A DNA stretch of 64,000 nucleotides from Thermoanaerobaculia bacterium (lineage in GTDB: Bacteria; Acidobacteriota; Thermoanaerobaculia; Gp7-AA8), in assembly GCA_035276475.1 (NCBI GenBank), contig DATELQ010000037.1, forward strand, positions 2,482-66,481, read 5' to 3'. The notes under the pieces are model-generated. The model had not been told where the DNA came from. It was given only the letters and a program-made list of their open reading frames with translations, and ran no database searches. Made by a program: the position numbers and the translations under genes. Shown here one piece after another: positions 1,054 through 57,363 of this stretch (position 1 is the first letter of the stretch; every line of letters starts with the position of its first letter).

Positions 1054-1665
1054 ATGGGTGTGGGTGACATCAATTGCGGCGTCGACTCCTCCTCCCCCGT
1101 CACACCGTCCGCAGCACATTGCCTGGCGCAGCTCGGCTTCACGTTCGTGGCGCGCTACTACCGCAGTCATAAGAGCAGCGCCAGCCGCCTGACGCGCGAG
1201 GAAGCGCTCGCCATCAGCGCCGCGGGGCTGAACCTCGTCACGGTCTTCGAGTACGCCGGGACGAAGGCGTCGTACTTCACCGCCGACCAGGCGCTCTTGG
1301 ACGCGAAGGACACGCTCGCGCAGATCGCCGAGGTGCAGCAGCCGATCGGCAGCGCGATCTACTTCGCCGTCGACTACAACGCCACAGCCGAGGACATCGC
1401 CGGGCCGATCACGAACTACTTCACCGTCGTCAACGGCGCGCTGCGCCCCCGCTTCGCCCCCGGCGTCTACGGCTCCGGCGCCACGTGCGCGGCGATGCTC
1501 ACCGCCGGTCTCGCCGACTTCGCCTGGCTCTCGCAGTCGGTCGGGTTCCTAGGCACGCCGGGCTTCACGCAGTGGAGCATCAAGCAAGGGATGCCGCACA
1601 TGTTCTGCGGGCTGGATACGGATCCGGATGAGGCGCACGGGCATTACGGGGGGTTCACGGTTTAG
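1054..1665 (+). CDS. DUF1906 / glycoside-hydrolase-25-like (Rv2525c-like) domain protein
   Basis: 203-aa ORF; N-terminal G.D....P......L...GFTFVARYY pattern typical of GH25-like DUF1906 proteins; no recognisable signal peptide. Confidence 0.45.
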   Translation: MGVGDINCGVDSSSPVTPSAAHCLAQLGFTFVARYYRSHKSSASRLTREEALAISAAGLNLVTVFEYAGTKASYFTADQALLDAKDTLAQIAEVQQPIGSAIYFAVDYNATAEDIAGPITNYFTVVNGALRPRFAPGVYGSGATCAAMLTAGLADFAWLSQSVGFLGTPGFTQWSIKQGMPHMFCGLDTDPDEAHGHYGGFTV

Positions 1666-1756: not shown

Positions 1757-3766
1757 TTACTTGAAATGCGTCTCGATCCAATCGATCCAGCGGCGATAGA
1801 CGTCGGCGTTGCGGACCGGATCGCCCGGGAAGTGCCCGCCGACCGGGTAGGCGACGAACTTCGTCTCCACGCCGTTGTCCTTGAGCGCGTGGTACATCTC
1901 GAACGACTGCGTGGCCGGCACGCGCGTGTCGCCGGTGTCGGTGAGGATCAGCGTCGGCGTCTTGATGGCGTGCGCGTAGGTGATCGGCGACTGCTCCATC
2001 CACGCCTTCGCGGTCTTGGGGTTGTACGGCGAGCCTTCGAGCGAGTAGCGCACGGTGACGTTGTTGTCGGACAAGACGTACTCGTGCACGAGGTTGTTGA
2101 CGGCCGCGCCGGAGACGGCGGCGCGGAACGGGCCGTAGTGGCCGATGAGCCACGACGTCATGTAGCCGCCGTACGACCAGCCGGAGACGGCGATGCGGCT
2201 CTCGTCGATGAAGCCGCGCTTCTCGAGCATGGCCACGCCGGCCATGACGTCGCGGCCCGGCCCGGCGCCAGCGTCGTTGTAGATGGCGCGCTGGTAGGCG
2301 TTGCCGAGGTTGTCGCTGCCGCGGTAATTCGGGGAGAAGACGATCCAGCCGCGCGCGGCGAGGAGCTGCGAGAAGAGGCTGAAGGAGCGGATCGACGCCG
2401 CTTGCGGACCGCCGTGGATGCTGAGCACGAGCGGGTACTTCTTCGCTGGATCGAAGTCGGGCGGATAGACGACGATGCCGTCCTCGTCGAAGCCGTCGTT
2501 CTTCCACGTCACACGCTCGACTTTTCCAAGCTCCAGCGTGCCGACCCAGTCGTTGAACGAGGTGAGGCGGCGCGGCTTCGCGTCGGCGGAGCTCATGTAG
2601 TACAGCTCGCGGGCGCGATACGGCTCGCTGCCGGTGAAGGCGATCGCGCCGTCACGGCCGACGTTCATGTCCACCCAGTACGACCACGACGGATTGATGT
2701 CGCCCAAGTCGAGCTTGCGCGCGGCGCCGCCGCCGGCGGGCTGCAGCCAGAGCGCGGTCTGGTCTTTGTCGTGGCCGCCGACGAGGAGCGTCTTGCTGTC
2801 GGGCATCCAAAGCTGGCGGAAGAAGCTGCGGTCGATGCCGCGCGTGGCGTCGACGCTGTCGCCGCCGGAGGCTTGGGCGACGTAGATGTCGTTGACTGCG
2901 GCGCCGTCGCCGTCGCGGTAGTACCAGTACGCGACCTGTTTGCCGTCGGGCGAGAACTGCGGCGTGAACTCGAACTTCGTCTTCTTCGTCAGCGGCCGCG
3001 ACGCGCCGGTGGCGACGTCGACGATCTGCACCGACGTCTGGTCGCTGTCGCCGTAGACCGGCGTCTCCTGCCGCGTGATGGCGATCTGCTTGCCGTCCGG
3101 TGACCACGACAGCGGCGACGGGATCGGGCCGGGCGGCTGGTAGGTCGGCAGGCTCCACGTGCCCGTCGTGATGCGCTTCGCGTTCGCGCCGTCCGCGTCG
3201 ATGGTCCACAGATGCGTCGGGAGCGGGTACTCCTGCGCGAGGAAGTCGAGGTTGCCGACCTCGAACGCGTCCTCGTGCTTGGCGCGGTCCTTCTTCTGCG
3301 GCTTCTCGTCCGAGGCCGCGTAGGCGAAGGCGTTGCCGTCGGGGCGCCAGGCGAAGTGCGACACCCCCATCGGCGCGCTCGTGACGCGGCGCGCGTCGCC
3401 GCCGTCCATCGGCATGATCCAGATCTGCGGCATCGATTCCTTTTTCTCGCCGGTCGGCGCTTCGTCGAGAAAGGCCAGGCGGTCACCGCTCGGCGACCAG
3501 CGCGGCGAGTTGACGTGGCGCCGCTCGAAGGTCAGCACGCGCTGCCTTCCGCTGGCGACGTCGACGAGGACAAGCTCGCTCTCGGAGCGGTTCTCCGCGA
3601 CGTTCGGCCGCGAGACGATGCAGACGATCGACTTTCCGTCCGGCGAGAGCTGCGGGTCGGAGACGCTGACGGAGCGGAAGAGATCGTCGAGGGAGACGCG
3701 CGGCTTCTGCTGCGCCGACGCGAGCGAGGCGAAGGCCAGGAGGGCGACGAGTTTGATTGTCCGCAT
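1757..3766 (-). CDS. S9 family serine peptidase (prolyl oligopeptidase / dipeptidyl aminopeptidase type) with N-terminal TolB-like beta-propeller, secreted
   Basis: 669 aa; signal peptide; propeller repeats; catalytic nucleophile motif GWSYGGYM; C-terminal Asp/His region (GDTD, GGHF). Confidence 0.9.
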   Translation of the reverse strand: MRTIKLVALLAFASLASAQQKPRVSLDDLFRSVSVSDPQLSPDGKSIVCIVSRPNVAENRSESELVLVDVASGRQRVLTFERRHVNSPRWSPSGDRLAFLDEAPTGEKKESMPQIWIMPMDGGDARRVTSAPMGVSHFAWRPDGNAFAYAASDEKPQKKDRAKHEDAFEVGNLDFLAQEYPLPTHLWTIDADGANAKRITTGTWSLPTYQPPGPIPSPLSWSPDGKQIAITRQETPVYGDSDQTSVQIVDVATGASRPLTKKTKFEFTPQFSPDGKQVAYWYYRDGDGAAVNDIYVAQASGGDSVDATRGIDRSFFRQLWMPDSKTLLVGGHDKDQTALWLQPAGGGAARKLDLGDINPSWSYWVDMNVGRDGAIAFTGSEPYRARELYYMSSADAKPRRLTSFNDWVGTLELGKVERVTWKNDGFDEDGIVVYPPDFDPAKKYPLVLSIHGGPQAASIRSFSLFSQLLAARGWIVFSPNYRGSDNLGNAYQRAIYNDAGAGPGRDVMAGVAMLEKRGFIDESRIAVSGWSYGGYMTSWLIGHYGPFRAAVSGAAVNNLVHEYVLSDNNVTVRYSLEGSPYNPKTAKAWMEQSPITYAHAIKTPTLILTDTGDTRVPATQSFEMYHALKDNGVETKFVAYPVGGHFPGDPVRNADVYRRWIDWIETHFK

Positions 3767-6565: not shown

Positions 6566-8215
6566 TCATTTCACGTTCTGAAACCGCTTCGGAATCCACC
6601 ACCCCAGCTCGCCCGGGTACCACAGGTTCAGCCCCCACCCCTTGCTCTCGTTCACGTTGCGCAGGCGCTTGTTGACGGCCCACTTCGACGAGACCTGCAG
6701 CGTCCAGGTGTACGGCTGGTCGTTGGCCAGCACCTCGTGCAGCTTGCGCATGATGGGGATGCGTTTCTTGAGGTCGAGCTGGGTCCGCTCCGCGTCCATC
6801 AACTTGTCGGCCTCGGGATTCGAATAGAAGACGATGTTCTGGCTCTGCGGCGCGAACTGCGAGGAGTGAAAGAGCGTGAACGGATCGGGATCGGGATCGA
6901 CGTCCCAGGCCAGCTGCGCGGCCTCGAAGTTCCCGCCGAGGACTCGCTGCATGAAGGCGCTCGTGTCGAGCGGAACGATGTTCATCTGCACGCCGATCTT
7001 CTTGAGCTCCGCCTGCAGCAGCTGCCCGAACGGACTCGAGACGGCGTTGCCGCCGGGGATCAGCATGTCGAACTTGAACGGCTTGCCGTTCTTGTCGAGG
7101 ATGCCGTCCTTGTCGCTGTCAGTCCATCCGAGGGAGTTGAGGATGCGCTGGGCCTCGAGGGGGTTGTACTGGATGACCGGGACGTCGGGGTTGTAGGCCC
7201 ACTCGTCCGGCGTGAAGGGGCCGTTCATGGCCCGGGCCGTGCCGTGATAGAGGTTGTTGATCACCGACTGCAGGTCGATGCACATGGACATGGCCCGGCG
7301 CACGCGGCGGTCGCCGAAGATGGGGTGGCGGTTGTTCCAGGGGATGAAGTTGTAGGTCAGCGTGTAGAAGCGGCGGAAGTCGATGGTCTTCTGCAGCTCG
7401 GGGCGGCGGCTCTCCATGAGCCAGACGTCAGAGCTGATCTGGGCCTCGTCGACGTCGCCGCGCTGCACGGCCTGCCAGGCGGTCTTGTCGTCGTTGATGA
7501 CCTTGAAGAGGATCGTGTCGATCCAGACCGGCGGGCCCCACCAGTCCTTGCGCCGCTGCAGGACGATCTCCTTCCCCGGCACGCGGCGGACGAGCGTGTA
7601 CGGCCCGGAGCCGATGGCGCGGTCGACCCAGCCGCCGCGGAAGTCGCCCTGACTGTAGACGTGCTCCGGCAGAGGGAGGACGTTGTTGAACTGGGTGAGC
7701 TGCGACGCCAGGGTCTCCTTGAACCCGACGACGATGGTGTGGTCGTCCAGGACTTTGGTGGTGGCGAGGTCGAGCTTGTCGAAGCCGCCGGCGATCTGCG
7801 CGGCCTCGCTGGCGGGATCGACGATTTTCTTGAGCGTGAAGAGGACGTCGCTCGCCTTGATGGGCGTGCCGTCGGAGAACGTCGCCTTCGGGTTGAGGTG
7901 GAAGGTGTAGAGCCTGCCGTCGGGCGAGATCTCCCACTTGTCCGCGAGGCCGGGAATCGGCTGGAGGTTGACGTCGAGATGGACGATGGGGGTGTAGAGG
8001 TAGTAGGCGATGAGGCGGTCGTACTTCGTCGCCGAGACGATGGGGTTGAGCGTGCTGACGTCGCCGGAGAGGCGGCGCAGGACCGTGCCGCCGGCCACCG
8101 GTACGGTGTCATCCTCCACCGCCGTTTGCACCGGCGGCAGCGCAGTCTCTCTCTTGCACGTGGCCGCGCAGAGAGCGAGCAGAAGAACAGCAAGGAGGGT
8201 GCGGGAACTGTTCAC
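6566..8215 (-). CDS. ABC transporter substrate-binding protein, family 5 (OppA/DppA type)
   Basis: Start moved to in-frame GTG (VNSSRTLLAVLLLALCAATC, signal/lipoprotein-like) because the upstream 21 codons of the track ORF are encoded by the heptamer hairpin; SBP_bac_5-like body. Confidence 0.8.
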   Translation of the reverse strand: MNSSRTLLAVLLLALCAATCKRETALPPVQTAVEDDTVPVAGGTVLRRLSGDVSTLNPIVSATKYDRLIAYYLYTPIVHLDVNLQPIPGLADKWEISPDGRLYTFHLNPKATFSDGTPIKASDVLFTLKKIVDPASEAAQIAGGFDKLDLATTKVLDDHTIVVGFKETLASQLTQFNNVLPLPEHVYSQGDFRGGWVDRAIGSGPYTLVRRVPGKEIVLQRRKDWWGPPVWIDTILFKVINDDKTAWQAVQRGDVDEAQISSDVWLMESRRPELQKTIDFRRFYTLTYNFIPWNNRHPIFGDRRVRRAMSMCIDLQSVINNLYHGTARAMNGPFTPDEWAYNPDVPVIQYNPLEAQRILNSLGWTDSDKDGILDKNGKPFKFDMLIPGGNAVSSPFGQLLQAELKKIGVQMNIVPLDTSAFMQRVLGGNFEAAQLAWDVDPDPDPFTLFHSSQFAPQSQNIVFYSNPEADKLMDAERTQLDLKKRIPIMRKLHEVLANDQPYTWTLQVSSKWAVNKRLRNVNESKGWGLNLWYPGELGWWIPKRFQNVK

Positions 8216-8230
8216 GCCGCCATTATAGGC

Positions 8231-8301
8231 AGTGCTGAGTGCTGAGTGCCGAGTGCTGAGTTGGGAGGTACTCAGCACTCAGAACACAGCACTCAGCACT
8301 C
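8231..8301. repeat. perfect stem-loop made of heptamer tandem repeats (4 x AGTGCTG, loop, 4 x CAGCACT)
   Basis: agtgctgagtgctgagtgccgagtgctgag-ttgggaggt-actcagcactcagaacacagcactcagcact lying directly 3' of the propeller gene stop and 5' of the SBP gene start on the minus strand. Confidence 0.85.
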
Positions 8302-8303
8302 TT

Positions 8304-10460
8304 CTACGGCAGGGTGATGGACTCGGTCGAGACGTTGTAGTACGCGTCGGTCGCGCGAACAATTACAAATTTTCCGGCGATGGCGCTGCGCGTCAGCCGG
8401 TAGCTCTCATCCGGCGAGTCGGCGATGCCGTCGACCGGCGTGAGGCGGATCCACTTCTGCGCGTCGATGGAGTACTCGACCTTGCCGATCGGCGAGAGCT
8501 TGTCGGTCACGCGGATGACGACGTCGCTGCCGCTCACGTTCGAAACGATCTGCGGCGGGGTGTTGTCGACCAGGAACTCGATCCCTTCCTTCGTATCCGT
8601 CAGCGCCCCCTCGGCGTTGTCCTGCGCGTCGGTGACGGAGAGGCGCAGCTCGTACACGCCGTCGGGGAGCTGCGAGGTGTCGAAGTTCATCGACGTCTCG
8701 TCGAGGTTGTCGCGCAGGCGCAGCCAGTTGTCCGTCCCCTTGCGGCGGAACGAGAGCGAGTAGCGCAGCGAGTCGTTGTTCTCGTCGTGCGCGCGCCACG
8801 TCACGGTGCGGTAGCCCTTGCGGTAGACCTTCTTCCCCGGCTCGTTCTTGTCGTGCGCCGGCTCGAGGCTGGTGAAGATGCCGTATTCGTCGGGGTTCGT
8901 GGCCTCGACGACGTTGGGCGACTGCGGGTAGCTGCCGGTGATGTAGACGACGGCCGGCTCCTGCACGGCGACGTTGTCGATGACCGGGGCGACGTTGCGG
9001 TTGAGGAAGGAGATGGTGACGGTGTCGACGGCGATGTCGGGCGCGGGATTCGGCATGGTGAGCTTCCACTGCACGTACCGCCCCGCCGGCGCCTGAATCG
9101 ACCCCTCGGACGCCGCCGTCGAGGCGCTCCACGGACTCCACGTGGCGTCGGGCGTGCGCGTGTTGCCGCTGCGGAAGGCGATGGCGAGGTGGCCGTTGTC
9201 GACGTCGCTGCCGTCGATGCGGTAGTGGCCGAAGCGCGAGAAGCGGTCGACGTCCTTCGCCGCGGAGCGGAACTCCGCCTTCGCCGACGGCGCGCTTTCC
9301 ATGCGATAGATCGCACCGCTGTTGGTCGTCGTGATCAAGCCGTCCGAGGAGATCGAGACGACCTGCTTCTCCGGCACGGTGGCGATGAGCGACACCTCGG
9401 TGCCTTTCATCGAATAGACGCGTCCCTGCGGGCCGCTCGACAGCAGGATCGTGCCGTTCGGGCCGCCGCTGATGGCGTAGACCATCTCGCGGTCGAACTT
9501 GCGCACGGTCTGCACGAAGCCGTCGGGATCGATGCGGTAGATCTCGCCGCTGCCGCCACTCGTCACGGCCGCGGCGGCGGAGTCGTCGAACGAGTACGAA
9601 ACCTCGACCGAGGCGGTGGGCTCGTCTTTCTTCGGCTCGGCGCCGGTGGCCGTCGCGGACGTGCTCGTGCCCGAGGGCTGCGGCGTCTTCTGCTGCGGCT
9701 TGGGCGCGCTGGACGGCAGCACGTTGCTCGCCGCCGAGGCCCAGCCGGTGCCGTTCGCATCGACGTAGATCGCGGAGATCTCGCTCAGCGGCGAGTCGAA
9801 GAGCGCGTGGGCGCTGCCGTCCGGACGCACTTCGTAGATCCGGCCCTTGCCCGAGCCGCCGGCGAGGATCGAGCCGTCTTTGCGCACGGCGAGCGAGCGC
9901 AGGTGCGTGTCGGGCGCGTCGAAGAAGACCTTCCCCTCCCCGTTCGCGGCGACGCGGAAGAGCTTTCCTTCGACGCCGGTGGCGGCGAGGAGGTCGTTGC
10001 CGCTGAAGGCGAGGGCCCAGATGTAAGCCTGCTTCGGATCGAAGACGACGGTGGACTTGCCGGTGTCGTCGACGCGGTAGATCTTCCCGTTCGGCGACGT
10101 GCCGGCGTAGAGAGCGCCGTCATGCCAGGCGATGGTGTAGATCTCCGGCTCCGGCGCGGTCCAGACGACTTTGAGGTCGCTGCCGCGGAGGCGATAGAGC
10201 TTGCCGTCGTTGCCGGTGCCGAAGTAGCGGTCGCCGTTCGCCGCCGTGGCCTGGGAGAGGACGAACGGATCGGTGAACGAGGCGATCTTCGTCACGCCCG
10301 GTGCCGGCCGGAGCTCTCCGCGCGAGGTGACGGCGAAGCCGTCAACCTCGCCCGCGAGGAAATCCTCGGTGCTGCGGACTCTCCAGAATTGCGGGACGAC
10401 GGCGAAGGCGGTGGACGAGAACAGTGCCACTAAAAGCGCAAGGCGAAACCGCATGCACAC
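8304..10460 (-). CDS. secreted beta-propeller repeat protein with C-terminal beta-sandwich (Ig/FN3-like) region
   Basis: 718 aa; signal peptide; about 7 repeats of G(K/R/E)(L/I)(Y/F)R(V/L/I/M) blade motif; 3-nt gap to S55 peptidase gene. Confidence 0.6.
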   Translation of the reverse strand: MCMRFRLALLVALFSSTAFAVVPQFWRVRSTEDFLAGEVDGFAVTSRGELRPAPGVTKIASFTDPFVLSQATAANGDRYFGTGNDGKLYRLRGSDLKVVWTAPEPEIYTIAWHDGALYAGTSPNGKIYRVDDTGKSTVVFDPKQAYIWALAFSGNDLLAATGVEGKLFRVAANGEGKVFFDAPDTHLRSLAVRKDGSILAGGSGKGRIYEVRPDGSAHALFDSPLSEISAIYVDANGTGWASAASNVLPSSAPKPQQKTPQPSGTSTSATATGAEPKKDEPTASVEVSYSFDDSAAAAVTSGGSGEIYRIDPDGFVQTVRKFDREMVYAISGGPNGTILLSSGPQGRVYSMKGTEVSLIATVPEKQVVSISSDGLITTTNSGAIYRMESAPSAKAEFRSAAKDVDRFSRFGHYRIDGSDVDNGHLAIAFRSGNTRTPDATWSPWSASTAASEGSIQAPAGRYVQWKLTMPNPAPDIAVDTVTISFLNRNVAPVIDNVAVQEPAVVYITGSYPQSPNVVEATNPDEYGIFTSLEPAHDKNEPGKKVYRKGYRTVTWRAHDENNDSLRYSLSFRRKGTDNWLRLRDNLDETSMNFDTSQLPDGVYELRLSVTDAQDNAEGALTDTKEGIEFLVDNTPPQIVSNVSGSDVVIRVTDKLSPIGKVEYSIDAQKWIRLTPVDGIADSPDESYRLTRSAIAGKFVIVRATDAYYNVSTESITLP

Positions 10461-12356: not shown

Positions 12357-13557
12357 CGATCGGATCGAGCTTCGAAGCCTTCGCGGCCGGGTAGATGCCG
12401 AAGATGATGCCGAGCACTGCGCAGAAGCCGAAGGCGATGGCGATGGCCCAGAGCGGCGTGTGGACGGGCGGCAGCTCGAGAAGGCGCTTCAGGAGAAGGC
12501 GTGCCACGTTGGCAAGTAGGTAGCCGCCGGCGACGCCGATGCCGCCGCCGAGGCCCGACAAGACGACGGCCTCGATGAGAAATTGCAGCATGACGTCGGC
12601 GCGGCGGGCTCCGATGGCCTTGCGGACGCCGATCTCGCGCGTCCGCTCCGTCACGGAGACGAGCATGATGTTCATGATCCCGATGCCGCCGACGAGCAGG
12701 GCGATGCCGACGACCGCGCCCATGACGACGCTCGTGGTCGTCAGCGCCTTGGAGATCATCTTCAGGATCTCCTCCTGCGCCAGGACGCGGAAGTCGTTGC
12801 GCTGATCTTTCTTGAGGTGGTGGCGCGTGCGCAGGATCTCCGTGGTCTGTTCTTCGACCTGATCGAGGTCGCTGCCGTTGCGCATCTGAAACGCCAGGAT
12901 GAGGCGCTTCATGTTCTCCGGGCCCCAGATCGATTCCGCGGTGGTGAAGGGGATGAAGACGACGTCGTCGCGGTCCTGGCCGAAGGAGCCGCCCTTCTTT
13001 TCCATGACGCCGACGACCGTGAAGCCGTTGTCGTTGATCTGGATGCTCTTCCCGACCGGGTCGGCGCCGAGCTCGAGCTTCTCCGCAACGGTCTCGCCGA
13101 TGACGCAGACGCGCTTCTTGCTCTCGGCGTCGAGGACGGAGAAGAAGCGCCCGCGATCGACCCAGTGGTTGAAGACGTCCTGGTAGGCGGCGCTGACGCC
13201 CATCAACTGCACGGCGTGGTGGGTCTCCGCCCGCTTGGTCTCGACGTTGGTCATGAAGAGCGGGGTGAAGTCCTTGATGGTCGGCGTGGCCTTCTGCACC
13301 GCCTCGGCGTCCTCGATGGTCAGCTCCGGCAGCTTCTGGGGCAAGCCGCGCCCCTCGCCGGCGTCAGGGAAGACTTCGATGTAATTCGTCCCGACGCTCT
13401 GCAGGTCCTCGGAGAGTTTGTACTGCATCCCCTGGACGAGCGAGACGACGGCGATGACCGCGGCCACGCCGATCATCACGCCGAGGGTCGTGAGGATCGA
13501 GCGCATCTTGTTGGCGCCGATGGCGCGCAACGCGATTTTTACGTTTTCGAAGAACAT
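12337..13557 (-). CDS. MacB/LolC-type ABC transporter permease (FtsX family)
   Basis: 406 aa; [38 protein letters not shown]-terminus, large periplasmic domain, 3 C-terminal TM. Confidence 0.85.
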
Positions 13558-13569
13558 GGCCGCGACGCG

Positions 13570-14262
13570 CTAATTCGCAATTTTCCCATCCCGAATATGA
13601 ATCACCCTCTTCGCCTCCTGCGCCACATCATCCTCATGCGTCACCATGATGATCGAGTTCCCGCGGCTGTGGAGGTCGCGGAAGAGGTCGAGGATCTCGC
13701 GGCCGGTTTGGGAGTCGAGGTTGCCGGTGGGCTCGTCGGCCAGCAGCAGCGACGGCTTGTTCACCAGGGCGCGGGCGATCGCCACGCGCTGGCGCTGGCC
13801 GCCGGAGAGCTCGTTCGGCTGGTGGTTCATGCGGTCGCCGAGGCCCACCGCGGAGAGCGCCTCCTCGGCCAGCTGACGGCGCTCGGCCCGGGGGATCTTC
13901 GCGTAGACGAGCGGCAGCTCCACGTTCTGCAGCGCCGTCGTGCGGGCCAGCAGGTTGAACGTCTGGAACACGAAGCCGATCTTCTTGTTGCGCACGGCCG
14001 CCAGCTCGTCGTCGTTCATCGACTCCACCGGCGTGCCGTCGAGGATGTACTGCCCCGCGCTGGGGCGGTCGAGGCAGCCGATGATGTTCATCAGCGTCGA
14101 CTTGCCCGAGCCCGACGGCCCCATGATCGCCACGTACTCCCCCTGCGCCACGATCAGGTCGACGCCGCGCAGCGCGTAGATCTCCTGCGGCCCGAGTTGG
14201 TAGACGCGGGTCAGCTCGTGCATCTCGATCAGGTGTGCGCCGTTGCCGTTTCCGTTGCTCAC
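13570..14262 (-). CDS. ABC transporter ATP-binding protein (MacB/LolD type)
   Basis: Walker [10 protein letters not shown], signature [15 protein letters not shown], Walker [13 protein letters not shown]. Confidence 0.9.
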
Positions 14263-27587: not shown

Positions 27588-27629
27588 GCCCTGATTCTAA
27601 CCTCGGAATGAACGCCCCGCTGCGCCCGG

Positions 27630-27990: not shown

Positions 27991-28506
27991 TTGAGTTACG
28001 CGCTCGCGCTTCTGCTGCTCCTCCTCGGCCGCGCCGCCGCCGCGCCGCCGAAGCCGCTGGCCGGCTACAACGAAGCTGTCGTCGAGCGCTTCTCGATCAT
28101 CAAAGGATGCAACCTCGCGCCGACGCTGTCCGACGTCGTGCAGCAAACGGTGGTGTCGCGCCTGCGGACGAAGAAGCTCGTCGCGGTGATCGACCGCCTC
28201 GACGCCGACGACGAGGAGCTGGCGAAGGCGCCGCCGGCGGACGGCGTGAAGCGGATGACGGTGACGGCGACGATCGTCGAGTTCGCGCGCGGCAGCCAGA
28301 CCGCGCGCTCGATGGGCATCGGCGCCGGCGCGACGAAGCTGCGCGTCCGCTTCATCTTCAAGGATGCGGTGACCGGCGCCGAGCTCTTCACGACCGAGCG
28401 CCTCGGCCGCTACAGCTACGGCAGCGGCACGAACGAGGCGGGCTTCAGCGCCGCGGCCGGCGAGGTGGTGGATGGGCTGATCGCGGAGATGGAGAAGAAC
28501 CGCTGA
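27991..28506 (+). CDS. secreted hypothetical protein
   Basis: Start moved to in-frame TTG after the rpsU terminator (GGAAGGG SD 5 nt upstream); hydrophobic signal LSYALALLLLLLGRAAAAP; no recognised family. Confidence 0.5.
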   Translation: MSYALALLLLLLGRAAAAPPKPLAGYNEAVVERFSIIKGCNLAPTLSDVVQQTVVSRLRTKKLVAVIDRLDADDEELAKAPPADGVKRMTVTATIVEFARGSQTARSMGIGAGATKLRVRFIFKDAVTGAELFTTERLGRYSYGSGTNEAGFSAAAGEVVDGLIAEMEKNR

Positions 28507-28561
28507 ATCCCGAATCGCGAATTCGGAATTCGGAATTCGCAATTCACGTCTACTGCCCCGC

Positions 28562-41844: not shown

Positions 41845-41933
41845 GCCCCGGTGGCGGAATAGGCAGACGCAGCGGACTTAAAATCCGCTGCCGCGTAAGC
41901 GGCGTGCCGGTTCGAGTCCGGCCCGGGGCACCA
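41845..41933 (+). tRNA. tRNA-Leu (anticodon TAA)
   Basis: 89 nt; acceptor gccccgg/ccggggc, long variable arm, anticodon loop cttaaaa, T-loop ggttcgagtcc, encoded CCA. Confidence 0.9.
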
Positions 41934-48989: not shown

Positions 48990-49598
48990 ATGGACGCGAT
49001 GTCGACGCCCGAATCCGCTCTGGTCAGTCCGACCGAGTATCTCGAGATCGAACGGAATTCCGAGATCCGGCACGAGTACGTCAACGGACGGATGTACGAG
49101 ATGTCGGGCGCCAGCGACGCGCACTCTCTCATCGGTTGGAACCTGATCAGGGTACTTTCCAATCAGATAGGCGACCGTCCCTGTCGCGTGTACTACGGGG
49201 ACATGCGCGTGAAGGTCAGCCCTACGGGGATGTATACCTATCCCGACATCGCCGCGCTCTGCGACAAACCTCGACTCGAGAATTTCAAGGGCATCGACAC
49301 GCTGCTGAACCCGAGCGTGATCATCGAAGTGCTCTCCCACACGACCGAGTCGTACGACCGCGGCGACAAGTTCGAGCACTACCGCCGTCTGGAGTCGCTG
49401 CAGGAGTACGTTCTCGTGCCGCAGCACCGGATGCGCGTCGAGCAGTTCGTCCGCGACGGCGCCGACTGGCGGCTGTCGGAGCTCAGCGACCCACAGGCAT
49501 TGCTCCGCCTCGCGCCGATCGGCTGCGAGATCAGCCTCGCCGACATTTACCGAGGCGTCGAGTTCCCGAGCATCGAGAGCTCGCGCTGGCCCCGCTGA
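48990..49598 (+). CDS. Uma2-family (DUF820) putative endonuclease
   Basis: 202 aa; PTEYLEIERNSEIRHEYVNGRMYEMSGAS ... YPDIAALCD ... SVIIEVLSHTTESYDRGDKFEHYRRLESLQEYVLV matches Uma2 restriction-endonuclease-like fold family. Confidence 0.75.
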   Translation: MDAMSTPESALVSPTEYLEIERNSEIRHEYVNGRMYEMSGASDAHSLIGWNLIRVLSNQIGDRPCRVYYGDMRVKVSPTGMYTYPDIAALCDKPRLENFKGIDTLLNPSVIIEVLSHTTESYDRGDKFEHYRRLESLQEYVLVPQHRMRVEQFVRDGADWRLSELSDPQALLRLAPIGCEISLADIYRGVEFPSIESSRWPR

Positions 49599-49648
49599 TC
49601 GCACAATCGACGGCAACCGCCGCGGTCATCGCCGGCGTGTTTGCCGCG

Positions 49649-50392
49649 ATGCTGATCGCGGAGTCGCTCGCGCCACTGCGGCGCACCGTCGAGTCGAAGC
49701 TGCGCCGCGTCGCGCGCAACCTGACGATCGGCGGCATCGCGCTGGCGATCACGCCGTGGCTGCAGGCGCTGCTGCTGCATCCGACGGCGGCGTGGATCGC
49801 GCGGCACCACGTCGGCCTCTTGCAGATCGTGCAGTGGCCGCCGTGGCTCGAGACGCTCGTCGCCGTCGTCCTTCTCGACTACACGCTCTGGTGGTGGCAC
49901 TGGGCCACGCACCGCGTGCCGTTCCTCTGGCGCTTTCACCTCGTGCACCACGTCGACCGCGACCTCGACGCCTCCACCGCGCTGCGCTTCCACTTCGGCG
50001 AGCTGGCGCTCTCCGTCCCGGTGCGCGCGCTGCAGATAATCGTCATCGGCGTCGAGCCGCACGCGCTCTGGCTGTGGCAGACGATCGTCTTCGCCTCGAT
50101 CCTCTTCCACCACTCGAACCTGCGCCTGCCCGAGGCCTTCGAGCGCGTGCTCGTGCGCGTCATCGTCACGCCGCGCATGCACGGCATCCATCACTCCGAT
50201 CGCCTCGGCGACACCGACAGCAACTGGTCGAACCTCCTCTCCGCGTGGGACTCCCTGCACGGCACGATGCGGCTCGACGTCGCGCAGCCGGAGATCACCA
50301 TCGGCGTGCCGGCGTACGCGGATCGCGAGGAAGTCACGATCGGGAAGATGCTCCTCCTCCCCTTCCGCCGGCGCCTGCGCGAGTGGCGCTGA
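49649..50392 (+). CDS. sterol desaturase / fatty-acid hydroxylase superfamily membrane protein
   Basis: Histidine boxes HWATH, HLVHH, HGIHHSD; true start probably upstream (in-frame GTG 49637 or CTG 49595) to include first TM. Confidence 0.65.
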   Translation: MLIAESLAPLRRTVESKLRRVARNLTIGGIALAITPWLQALLLHPTAAWIARHHVGLLQIVQWPPWLETLVAVVLLDYTLWWWHWATHRVPFLWRFHLVHHVDRDLDASTALRFHFGELALSVPVRALQIIVIGVEPHALWLWQTIVFASILFHHSNLRLPEAFERVLVRVIVTPRMHGIHHSDRLGDTDSNWSNLLSAWDSLHGTMRLDVAQPEITIGVPAYADREEVTIGKMLLLPFRRRLREWR

Positions 50393-50435
50393 TTGCGCGA
50401 TCGGTGATCGCCGGCGAACGGACCGCGATCGATGC

Positions 50436-50649
50436 CCTGCGTGTCCATGCTCCGAGACCGGCGAGCACTGCTCCACGGCCTGCGTGTCCGTGCTCCGAGG
50501 CCGGCGAGCACTGCTCCACGGCCCGCGTGTCCGTGCTCGCAGACCGGCGAGCATTGCTCCATGCCTCGCGCGTCCGTGCTCGCAGGCCGGCGAGCATTGC
50601 TCCATGCCTCGCGTGTCCGTGCTCGCAGGCCGGCGAGCATTGCTCCACG
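50436..50649. repeat. tandem array of five ~43-bp hairpin-containing units
   Basis: cctgcgtgtccgtgctcgcaggccggcgagcattgctccayg x5 (period 42-43, few SNPs); each unit carries the palindrome TGCTCGCAGGCCGGCGAGCA; between convergent genes. Confidence 0.9.
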
Positions 50650-50692
50650 CGGGGCGTGCACGCGCACGCACGGGAGCGATGCGTGATCGCCG

Positions 50693-51028
50693 CTAGCGGA
50701 TCGTCGCCCGCTCCAGCGCGCCGGCCGCCGCGAGCACTTCGCGCAGCTCGCCGCTCGCGCGCTCCACGTCGTCGACGGCGATGCGCAGGAACATCTCGCC
50801 GCCCCCCGAGCCGGAGTCGTCGACCTTGCCGATGCCGCGCTTGGCGATCTCGTCCTCGATCGTGTTCCGCAGTTGCAGCTCCTCGCGCATGGCCATCCCC
50901 TTTCCCATCAACCGGATCGACACGACGACGTGCGGCCGCGCGTCCTCGGCGCGCAGGCGCTCCGCTTTCTTGCGCACGAAGTGGCCGAAGATGATGAAGA
51001 GGACGAGCGGGACGATGATCCAGACCAC
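50693..51028 (-). CDS. small membrane-anchored hypothetical protein (N-terminal TM, cytoplasmic tail)
   Basis: About 111 aa from in-frame GTG overlapping upstream stop (TAGTG); VWIIVPLVLFIIFGHF TM. Confidence 0.4.
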   Translation of the reverse strand: MVWIIVPLVLFIIFGHFVRKKAERLRAEDARPHVVVSIRLMGKGMAMREELQLRNTIEDEIAKRGIGKVDDSGSGGGEMFLRIAVDDVERASGELREVLAAAGALERATIR

Positions 51029-51495
51029 TACACGGCCTCGCGCGCGCGCTGCCGCTGGGCCAGGCGCTGGAGGAAGTCGTAGGCGAGGCCGCCGCTGGTG
51101 CGCTTGAGCGTGAGGAAGTAGACCGCCAGGGCGACGACCCCGCCGATCCAGGCCAGCGCGCCGAGCTGGTTCGTGCGCCCGGCAAAGAACGGCCAGAGCG
51201 TGAACAGCAGCGCCCCGGCCACGCCCGCGAGGAGCAGCGCCAGCCGCTGCGCCTTCGGCGCGTCGATCTCGCGGTTGCAAACGAGCGTCACCGTCGTCTC
51301 GCTCTCCGCCGCCCACGACACCGTGCACTCCACCCCGCCCGCCACCGCCACCCCGCGGCGCAGCGGCAGCACGAAGTCGCGCTCGTTGTCGCGCTCGGCC
51401 TTCATCTCGCCGCCGTAAAGGTCGACGAGCTCCGCGATCGTCTCTTCGATGCCGTCGCGGGGGATGCGGTCTTCGGTCAGCTCAACGGGGGTCAT
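51028..51495 (-). CDS. hypothetical membrane protein (soluble N-domain then 2 TM)
   Basis: 155-aa ORF; C-terminal LALLLAGVAGALLFTLWPFF and LAWIGGVVALAVYFL helices. Confidence 0.5.
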   Translation of the reverse strand: MTPVELTEDRIPRDGIEETIAELVDLYGGEMKAERDNERDFVLPLRRGVAVAGGVECTVSWAAESETTVTLVCNREIDAPKAQRLALLLAGVAGALLFTLWPFFAGRTNQLGALAWIGGVVALAVYFLTLKRTSGGLAYDFLQRLAQRQRAREAV

Positions 51496-57235: not shown

Positions 57236-57345
57236 ACGGGTCAGAAAAGTGACCACGAACCAGGGGACGGGTGACGGGGAACAGGGCACAGGAGTATCGC
57301 CGCGAGAACACCTGTCCCCTGTTCCCTGTGACCTGTCACCTGCGC
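57236..57345. repeat. palindromic intergenic repeat element, copy B (same family as 1666-1756)
   Basis: caggggacgggtgacggggaacagggcacagg ... cctgtcccctgttccctgtgacctgtcacctg inverted arms in the divergent spacer between the two kinase genes; coordinates +/-1. Confidence 0.8.
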
Positions 57346-57363
57346 TGGTACAATCCGCCCGCT

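Follow-up and report, generated by a model that had tools for sequence, protein, structure and literature searches.

The window, i.e., the whole 64-kb stretch of DNA that was analyzed, belongs to a Thermoanaerobaculia (Acidobacteriota) MAG with a GC content of 66%. At 8231-8300, it contains an inverted tandem-heptamer repeat that is flanked by two genes, and the minus strand is the sense strand for both of them. The features of this region are the following:

6566-8215, minus strand: SBP_bac_5 (OppA-like) lipoprotein gene, GTG start at 8215-8213
8222-8227, minus strand: TATAAT -10 box, 6 nt from the SBP GTG, kept in 9/9 orthologous loci
8231-8261: arm 1 of the hairpin, AGTGCTG x4.4 with AGTGCCG as third unit, G-rich on the plus strand
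8262-8269: loop of 8 nt, TGGGAGGT on the plus strand and ACCTCCCA on the minus strand
8270-8300: arm 2 of the hairpin, ACTCAGC/CAGCACT x4.6 with one unit CAGAACA
8304-10460, minus strand: upstream gene for a 718-aa beta-propeller-like protein, TAG stop at 8304-8306

The hairpin lies 3 nt past the propeller stop and 3 nt ahead of the TATAAT of the SBP gene; its place between the two genes had been reported in an earlier sequence-only reading of this DNA. NCBI VJZ76_05935 from a Thermoanaerobaculia bacterium matches the propeller protein with 100% identity, and the GTG at 8215 was also chosen as SBP start by an independent gene caller. The ORFs that cross the hairpin are antisense or extension artefacts. 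This had been stated for the ORF running through it and was borne out by the GC3 value of 0.59 for 8232-10433 (plus strand), versus 0.93 in the real antisense gene. In contrast, the premise that an inserted module is present at this site turned out to be weak, because the S55 peptidase, propeller, SBP, and permease genes are syntenic in every relative that was fetched and examined.

On the plus strand, 8231-8300 reads AGTGCTG AGTGCTG AGTGCCG AGTGCTG AGT, TGGGAGGT, ACT CAGCACT CAGAACA CAGCACT CAGCACT. The arms of the 70-nt element have a length of 31 nt each and are complementary at 28 of the 31 positions, and arm 1 is the C-rich 3' arm on the sense strand. The inverted tandem-heptamer repeat described at 8231 is present, but the stem, which had been called perfect, is not so, because both arms have a degenerate third unit (AGTGCCG in one, CAGAACA in the other), and the loop was measured as 8 nt instead of 9 nt. 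TRF yielded a period of 7 with 4.4 and 4.6 copies, in agreement with a lag-7 scan, and 7 is the sole non-coding short period that is enriched in the window. When up to two mismatches were allowed, AGTGCTGAGTGCTG had seven matches in the 64 kb, versus 0.44 expected. The proposed calculation of the folding energy, performed for the hairpin alone and the sense (minus) strand, resulted in -52.6 kcal/mol (z = -9.5), and none of 200 shuffles folded as well. The 70-nt RNA of the minus strand was predicted to form a single dominant hairpin with 29 pairs and no alternative fold. An Rfam gathering scan of the window retrieved one tRNA only, and nothing at the hairpin.

The TATAAT at 8227-8222 (minus strand) was confirmed in its position 6 nt from the GTG at 8215. 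The SBP gene thus has a TANNNT-type -10 hexamer, at a distance within the 5-9 nt expected for a leaderless mRNA, and no Shine-Dalgarno motif. Scanning of 7000-9500 for terminators and for -35/-10 consensus promoters retrieved 0 terminators and no promoter, and a -35 hexamer at 16-18 nt was not found; the -35 position of the SBP promoter falls inside the hairpin arm. TATAAT, TAGAAT, or TATACT, followed by 6-7 nt and GTG, has been kept in all nine distinct orthologous loci, although the sequence between stop codon and box has been replaced. In addition, 24 of 99 called gene starts from five related loci have a TANNNT starting at -15 to -12 and no Shine-Dalgarno motif, whereas the other 31 scanned positions of the same 99 starts contain only 8 such boxes. 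Genes internal to operons in these five loci carry GGAGG, and the TANNNT-leaderless pattern is common in first genes of operons in this lineage. Leaderless promoters that consist of a -10 box only, with TANNNT 6-8 nt before ATG or GTG, have been described in Actinobacteria and Deinococcus-Thermus. The SBP gene resembles them in the spacing of 6 nt between TATAAT and GTG, in having neither a Shine-Dalgarno motif nor a -35 box, and in its conservation in orthologues. The literature searched did not contain a report on leaderless initiation in Thermoanaerobaculia. Taken together, the conservation and the lineage-wide enrichment support the earlier idea of a leaderless SBP message: judged from the sequences, the TATAAT box appears to be a real promoter that has been conserved, the SBP gene is probably translated from a leaderless mRNA, and the enrichment suggests that leaderless mRNAs are widespread in this Thermoanaerobaculia lineage.

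Several further observations concern start sites of this type. TANNNT boxes 6-10 nt before start codons without a Shine-Dalgarno motif are frequent in loci L001, L122, L123, L125, and L126, and a conserved TATCCT precedes the CTP_transf_like, S9 peptidase, and polyprenyl synthase genes in this lineage. The window contains five further leaderless-type arrangements (at 27599, 35228, 41943, 44021, and 57349). Its only tRNA gene (41845-41930, plus strand) is directly followed by the TATCAT-N9-ATG of a 392-aa ORF.

The spacer from the propeller stop to the SBP start was compared in nine orthologous loci, the window included. It is hypervariable and contains a heptamer hairpin, an unrelated GC hairpin, a solo array, or nothing:

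Window: AGTGCTG heptamer hairpin
L128 (98% SBP identity): unrelated GC-rich double hairpin
L122 (91% propeller identity): another GC-rich hairpin, outer stem GAGTGC...GCACTC
L129 and L130 (81% and 85% SBP identity): short hairpin GGGGCGCAC-n3-GTGCGCCCC
L123 (83% propeller identity): solo (ACTCAGC)x4.5 array, non-folding, z = 0.2
L125 (81% propeller identity): solo (CGAAGAA)x4 array, unstructured, z about 0
L126 (73% propeller identity): hairpin of GTGTCGG/CGACACC heptamers
L131 (84% SBP identity): no spacer; the TAG stop forms part of a TAGAAT box

The window and L128 have wholly different spacers, whereas their flanks are 97-98% identical at the nucleotide level. A strong hairpin of some kind is present in six of the nine spacers (window, L126, L128, L122, L129, and L130), and z values of about -6 to -9 were obtained for the folded spacers of the window, L128, and L122. 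Orthologues cope with other hairpins, with unstructured arrays, or with nothing at this site, and therefore, the element is probably dispensable.

The motif GGGGCGCAC-n-GTGCGCCCC is a second recurrent GC-rich hairpin, which takes the orthologous site of the heptamer hairpin. It was found at L128 3938-3985, at L129 297-315, and at the orthologous site of L130, and, in Anaerolineae and Verrucomicrobiota loci, at L008 656-675, 1815-1834, and 6162-6181 and at L087 184-203. The GC-rich hairpin GGGCGCA..TGCGCCC of L128, L129, and L130 is absent from the window. The gap between the SBP and permease genes, which has a length of only 4 nt in the window, also holds heptamer hairpins or arrays in relatives (GATTTTG/CAAAATC; GCGATTA/TAATCGC), i.e., at L129 1982-2052, L154 1097-1167, L130 5666-5735, and L123 13853-13922.

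The 64-kb window contains four heptamer-repeat hairpins, and their units are all different:

Element A, 1667-1754: GACAGGT/ACCTGTC-type hairpin, fills the 91-nt gap between the convergent genes 1054-1665 (plus strand) and 1757-3766 (minus strand)
Element B, 8231-8300: the AGTGCTG hairpin, in a co-directional gap
Element C, 28505-28549: self-complementary (GAATTCG)n between co-directional genes, weak fold, z = -1.4
Element D, 57261-57342: GGGGACA/CCTGTCC-type hairpin between divergent genes

Elements A, B, and D are the three longest inverted repeats of the 64 kb according to TRF and an inverted-repeat search, and all three consist of tandem heptamers. Element D ends 6 nt before the TACAAT (57349-57354)-N9-TTG (57364) of an 812-aa gene. 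Assignment of the gap types by GC3 showed that A is in a convergent gap, B and C are in co-directional gaps, and D is in a divergent gap. Due to this variety, the elements are not tied to gene 3' ends. A repeat of another kind is located at 50434-50650 between the convergent ORFs 49136-50392 (plus strand) and 50693-51328 (minus strand). It consists of a 43-nt unit, five times in tandem, and each unit has a small hairpin, GTGCTCGC-AGGCCG-GCGAGCAC.

A search for AGTGCTG arrays had been proposed as a check of locus specificity and was performed with the query AGTGCTGAGTGCTGAGTGC in one genome per GTDB species. The result speaks against a locus-specific function: the array occurs at at least 120 unrelated loci in at least 8 phyla and is thus a generic repeat, an outcome that the sequence-only reading itself, with its limit of dozens of unrelated loci, had named as a refutation. 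Among the matches listed, it was found in Cyanobacteriota, Acidobacteriota, Chloroflexota, Gemmatimonadota, Planctomycetota, Nitrospirota, and other phyla, with Nostocales (where it is abundant), Blastocatellia, Pyrinomonadaceae, Thermoanaerobaculia, Longimicrobium, and Gemmatimonas as hosts. The arrays among the matches listed are solo in 152 cases and paired in 21 cases, and the loops of the 21 paired hairpins are mutually unrelated. Thirty stretches of viral contigs also carry the array. A full-text literature search for the sequence as a bacterial repeat retrieved unrelated primer matches only. The element has the hallmarks of the SSR/STRR repeats: it has at least three tandem 7-nt units, it is intergenic and hypervariable, it occurs at many loci, and its unit is found in other genomes.

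The inverted pairs almost always follow one polarity. All 21 AGTGCTG-type pairs in the listed genomic loci are G-first, i.e., (AGTGCTG)n...(CAGCACT)n, and none has the reverse order, and both arms end in a register that has been conserved across phyla. In the viral contigs, the G-first order was found in five pairs with gaps of at most 60 nt and in one with a gap of 65 nt, and the C-first order in none. Among the inverted arrays of other units that were met incidentally in those loci, 17 are G-first, one is C-first, and two are ties. Exceptions to the G-first order are (CTCTCGG)n...(CCGAGAG)n at the macB site of L122 (6820-6899) and (TCTCGTT)n...(AAACGAG)n at L097 3824-3913; in both of them, the 5' arm is still G+T-rich. 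A hairpin of this kind reads alike on both strands, and therefore, the polarity cannot stem from gene orientation. For solo arrays in high-GC loci, the A+C-rich strand was the sense strand in 18 cases versus 12, which is not significant, and an earlier impression of a uniform orientation of solo arrays (7/7) proved not to be general.

Arrays with this layout enclose genes of the family PF05635 (23S_rRNA_IVP, S23p, Avd-like; TIGR02436, "four helix bundle protein"). In L123 and L125, a PF05635 gene for a protein of 131-139 aa is located between the MacB ATPase and permease genes. Its flanks are (AGTGCTG/AGGACTG)n on the upstream side and (CAGTCCT/CAGCACT)n on the downstream side, and the C-terminal tail of the protein extends into the 3' array. 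The cassettes at the macB site are:

L123 6420-6895
L125 6319-6812
L162-L165, about 1430-1940

The equivalent site of the window, at about 13557-13570 (L001 4647-4658), is a 12-nt gap without a PF05635 gene; in L122, this site is taken by a hairpin with a different unit and no ORF. A matching layout was found in Longimicrobium (L048), Phycisphaerae (L083), an uncultured bacterium (L112), and Nostoc (L101). In a Chloroflexia locus (L031), G-first inverted arrays enclose a truncated ORF, which looks like a decay intermediate. Among homologues that were picked regardless of repeats, four more have this layout at the macB site, and it was also found at a second site, beside a Tle1-like gene. Plasmid homologues with 32-44% identity, from Nostoc, Anabaena, Riemerella, Stanieria, Geminocystis, Picosynechococcus, Azospirillum, Gemmatirosa, and Calothrix, are also array-flanked. 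The flanking inverted tandem arms were scored uniformly, with a threshold of 14.5 and 75 ordinary genes of the same loci as controls. The threshold was reached by 21 of 22 PF05635 genes, all of them with G > C in the 5' arm, versus 0 of the 75 controls, which had a maximum of 13.5. A tblastn search for a PF05635 homologue in the window retrieved none, and the 8-nt loop does not contain a PF05635 remnant; likewise, no PF05635 relatives were found in the viral contigs by a close-relative scan or by tblastn near the viral AGTGCTG arrays.

Two of the array-flanked genes are located in cas loci, one between cas6 and cas4 on Anabaena sp. 90 pANA02 (L174) and one between cas10 and cmr3 on a plasmid of Picosynechococcus PCC 7003 (L179). 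The association of PF05635 genes with cas loci has been noted before (PMC3936711), and it may reflect selfish insertion and not a shared function. The only relative in the PDB is XCC0516 of Xanthomonas campestris, and Xanthomonas carries heptamer repeats, including convergent inverted pairs (PMC4692102). Very many PF05635 homologues are found on contigs of 0.5-2 kb, which is consistent with flanking repeats that break metagenome assemblies.

The same architecture is known from intervening sequences (IVS) of 23S rRNA. The Coxiella IVS has a terminal inverted-repeat stem of 28 bp, and AGAAGA followed by tandem GACAGAT heptamers of variable copy number is found upstream of its S23p ORF; RNase III cuts at the first heptamer (PMC4990558). 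The window element has terminal inverted repeats and a stem of 29-31 bp, well above the 20 bp by which an IVS stem is recognized. It thus resembles the IVSs of Coxiella and Leptospira, with a stem of about 28-31 bp that is built from tandem heptamers (PMC4990558). The purine-rich AGAAG(A) directly before the first heptamer is common to the Coxiella IVS and the window element, and the Coxiella unit GACAGAT compares with GACAGGT in element A. A variable heptamer copy number is common to IVSs and to the element class, whose arrays in relatives enclose a PF05635 ORF. Unlike the 23S IVSs, the window element has no ORF but only an 8-nt loop, and it is located between protein-coding genes and not in helix 25 or 45 of 23S rRNA. 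The Coxiella IVS paper was the only one found in the literature searched that deals with PF05635, S23p, or four-helix-bundle proteins together with repeats, and no paper that generalizes the IVS architecture beyond rRNA was found there.

We favor, with slightly better than even confidence, the explanation that the element at 8231-8300 is an ORF-less member of a widespread intergenic inverted-heptamer class, which forms an IVS-like stem with a role in RNase III processing or at mRNA 3' ends and is dispensable, while the SBP gene is expressed leaderlessly. Members of the class have an array of G-rich heptamers at the 5' side, then a loop, and then an array of complementary C-rich heptamers at the 3' side, and here, one such stem separates the propeller stop from the SBP -10 box. 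The window element matches the PF05635-enclosing stems in units, register, polarity, the flanking AGAAG, and stem length, with the cargo absent, and we therefore infer that it is an ORF-less derivative, or the seed, of an IVS-like PF05635 cassette. This putative descent rests on the shared units, register, and polarity. Read-through RNA from the propeller gene would contain a dsRNA stem of 29-31 bp that could be processed by RNase III, and/or the stem could protect the 3' end of the upstream mRNA; either effect would uncouple the propeller and SBP messages. SBP would be transcribed from its own TATAAT-N6-GTG leaderless promoter. A function as an RNA-processing site is plausible by analogy, because RNase III cuts 23S IVS stems of homologous architecture (PMC4990558). 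For the host, the element would be selfish or near-neutral and not an evolved attenuator.

The polarity would have an obvious use only in the ORF-bearing form, in which the purine-rich 5' arm supplies Shine-Dalgarno-like GAGG/AGGA; this is an argument and not a test. It fits a common descent of hairpins and cassettes. In a perfect (AGTGCTG)3, moreover, TGA occurs in every reading frame, since 7 = 1 mod 3.

A neutral origin by replication slippage has to be weighed against this. The element would then be a heptameric SSR that arose in place, with an inverted partner generated by template switching, and it would have no relation to PF05635 and no RNA role. Many bacteria have an excess of heptameric SSRs, for which slippage of the polymerase has been suggested as an explanation (PMC4692102). 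The extreme turnover at the site with differing units in relatives and the abundance of solo arrays among the matches listed are in agreement with slippage, and the differing units at one orthologous site could equally have arisen by slippage in situ. The window element shares the 7-nt unit, the intergenic location, the many loci, and the variation of length and sequence between close relatives with heptameric SSRs such as the cyanobacterial STRR, GGGAATC of Xanthomonas, and TAACTGA of Beggiatoaceae (PMC4692102, PMC4679880). It differs from them in its 66%-GC Thermoanaerobaculia host and in that each of the four window copies is inverted or palindromic. A polarity rule or a link to PF05635 was not found for heptameric SSRs in the literature searched. 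However, slippage alone would not predict the strict G-first polarity, the conserved register at the arm ends across phyla, the recurrence of an identical unit in distant phyla, or the near-universal bracketing of PF05635 genes, and we regard it as an unlikely explanation.

It is also doubtful that the hairpin has been selected by the host as a factor-independent terminator or insulator. At such a site, any strong hairpin would stop or stabilize the upstream transcript and shield the promoter. The element is a GC-rich stem-loop that begins 3 nt past a stop codon, like Rho-independent terminators, and six of the nine orthologous spacers have a very stable hairpin of unrelated sequence, so that host selection for a hairpin upstream of SBP could exist. 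Elsewhere, the flanks of AGTGCTG hairpins are A-rich at the 5' side and T-rich at the 3' side (about 38% versus a background of 21%), which is a roughly 1.8-fold enrichment of A/T, but real U-tracts are absent from these flanks. At the window element, the sense strand after the stem reads GCCUAUAAUGG, which is not a U-tract, and the scan also did not reveal one. In addition, the stem is about three times longer than that of a Rho-independent terminator, and sister elements are located away from gene 3' ends; element D lies between divergent 5' ends, where a terminator is not needed. U-less hairpins terminate poorly in high-GC bacteria where this has been examined. In L123 and L125, solo arrays that are unstructured (z about 0) are found instead of a hairpin, and L131 has no spacer at all.

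A MITE- or REP-like non-autonomous transposon, with a hairpin recognized in trans by a transposase such as a RAYT or an IS200/IS605-type enzyme, appears improbable. Its terminal inverted repeats with a short loop, its intergenic location in several copies per genome, and the many PF05635 genes on very short contigs, which would be expected if repeats break assemblies, are compatible with this origin. REP/REPIN and MITE elements are also intergenic palindromic hairpin repeats, often just past stop codons, with selfish dynamics. However, a target-site duplication was found neither at the window element, the flanks of which differ (AAG and GCC), nor in the comparison of filled and empty sites, and no transposase is present next to any PF05635 cassette examined. 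The arms are internal tandem repeats of a variable unit, the units differ within one genome, and the loops are not conserved between copies.

Still less probable is a DNA-level operator, in which the heptamers would be sites for a regulator that overlap the -35 region and control the SBP promoter. Only 3 nt in element B and 6 nt in element D separate the end of the arm and the -10 box, and deletion of heptamer repeats altered the behavior of the recO/recF promoter in Nostoc (bioRxiv 10.1101/2022.06.06.494920). Nevertheless, the array is absent or replaced in close orthologues that keep the same -10 box, and element A fills a convergent 3'-3' gap. An attenuator or riboswitch-like leader that governs read-through into oppABC has only the position between two co-directional genes in its favor and can practically be dismissed, and the locus-specific attenuator or terminator proposed in the sequence-only reading is not supported either: no U-tract, canonical terminator, leader peptide, Rfam match, or alternative to the single dominant fold was found, and the element is not conserved in the orthologues, which have unrelated hairpins, unstructured solo arrays, or, in L131, no spacer.

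The ORF-less, IVS-like element of the window belongs to a known, poorly understood class of heptameric repeats, and the polarity rule and the link to PF05635 and IVSs are the outcome of most interest. STRR-type repeats have been known since 1990, and, to our knowledge, they are still unexplained. We tentatively propose, as a generalization that we consider rather less probable than not, that heptanucleotide arrays and hairpins of the STRR type are footprints or ORF-less derivatives of a widespread mobile IVS-like PF05635 cassette, that their polarity results from a directional mechanism, and that the 23S IVSs are the special case of cassettes that landed in rRNA. A directional mechanism is proposed because random slippage would not yield the G-first polarity. 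One possibility is that both ends of a break are 3'-extended with G-rich heptamers and then joined, and an Avd-like protein together with a polymerase or a reverse transcriptase is possibly involved in the making of the arrays.

For the locus itself, annotation of the hairpin as a dedicated oppABC attenuator should be avoided. The useful regulatory annotation is the -10 box: it is conserved and implies that SBP is expressed leaderlessly and, beyond this locus, that leaderless initiation is common in Thermoanaerobaculia. On a larger scale, the data join two loose ends, i.e., the over-represented heptameric repeats of bacteria and the unexplained S23p/four-helix-bundle family found in cas operons and in 23S rRNA. 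The rule that we offer is that of inverted tandem arrays with the G-rich arm at the 5' side, with or without an ORF. If this rule is true genome-wide, it would delimit a novel class of selfish cassettes and account for the assembly breaks around PF05635 genes, and RNase III processing sites would be expected within operons.
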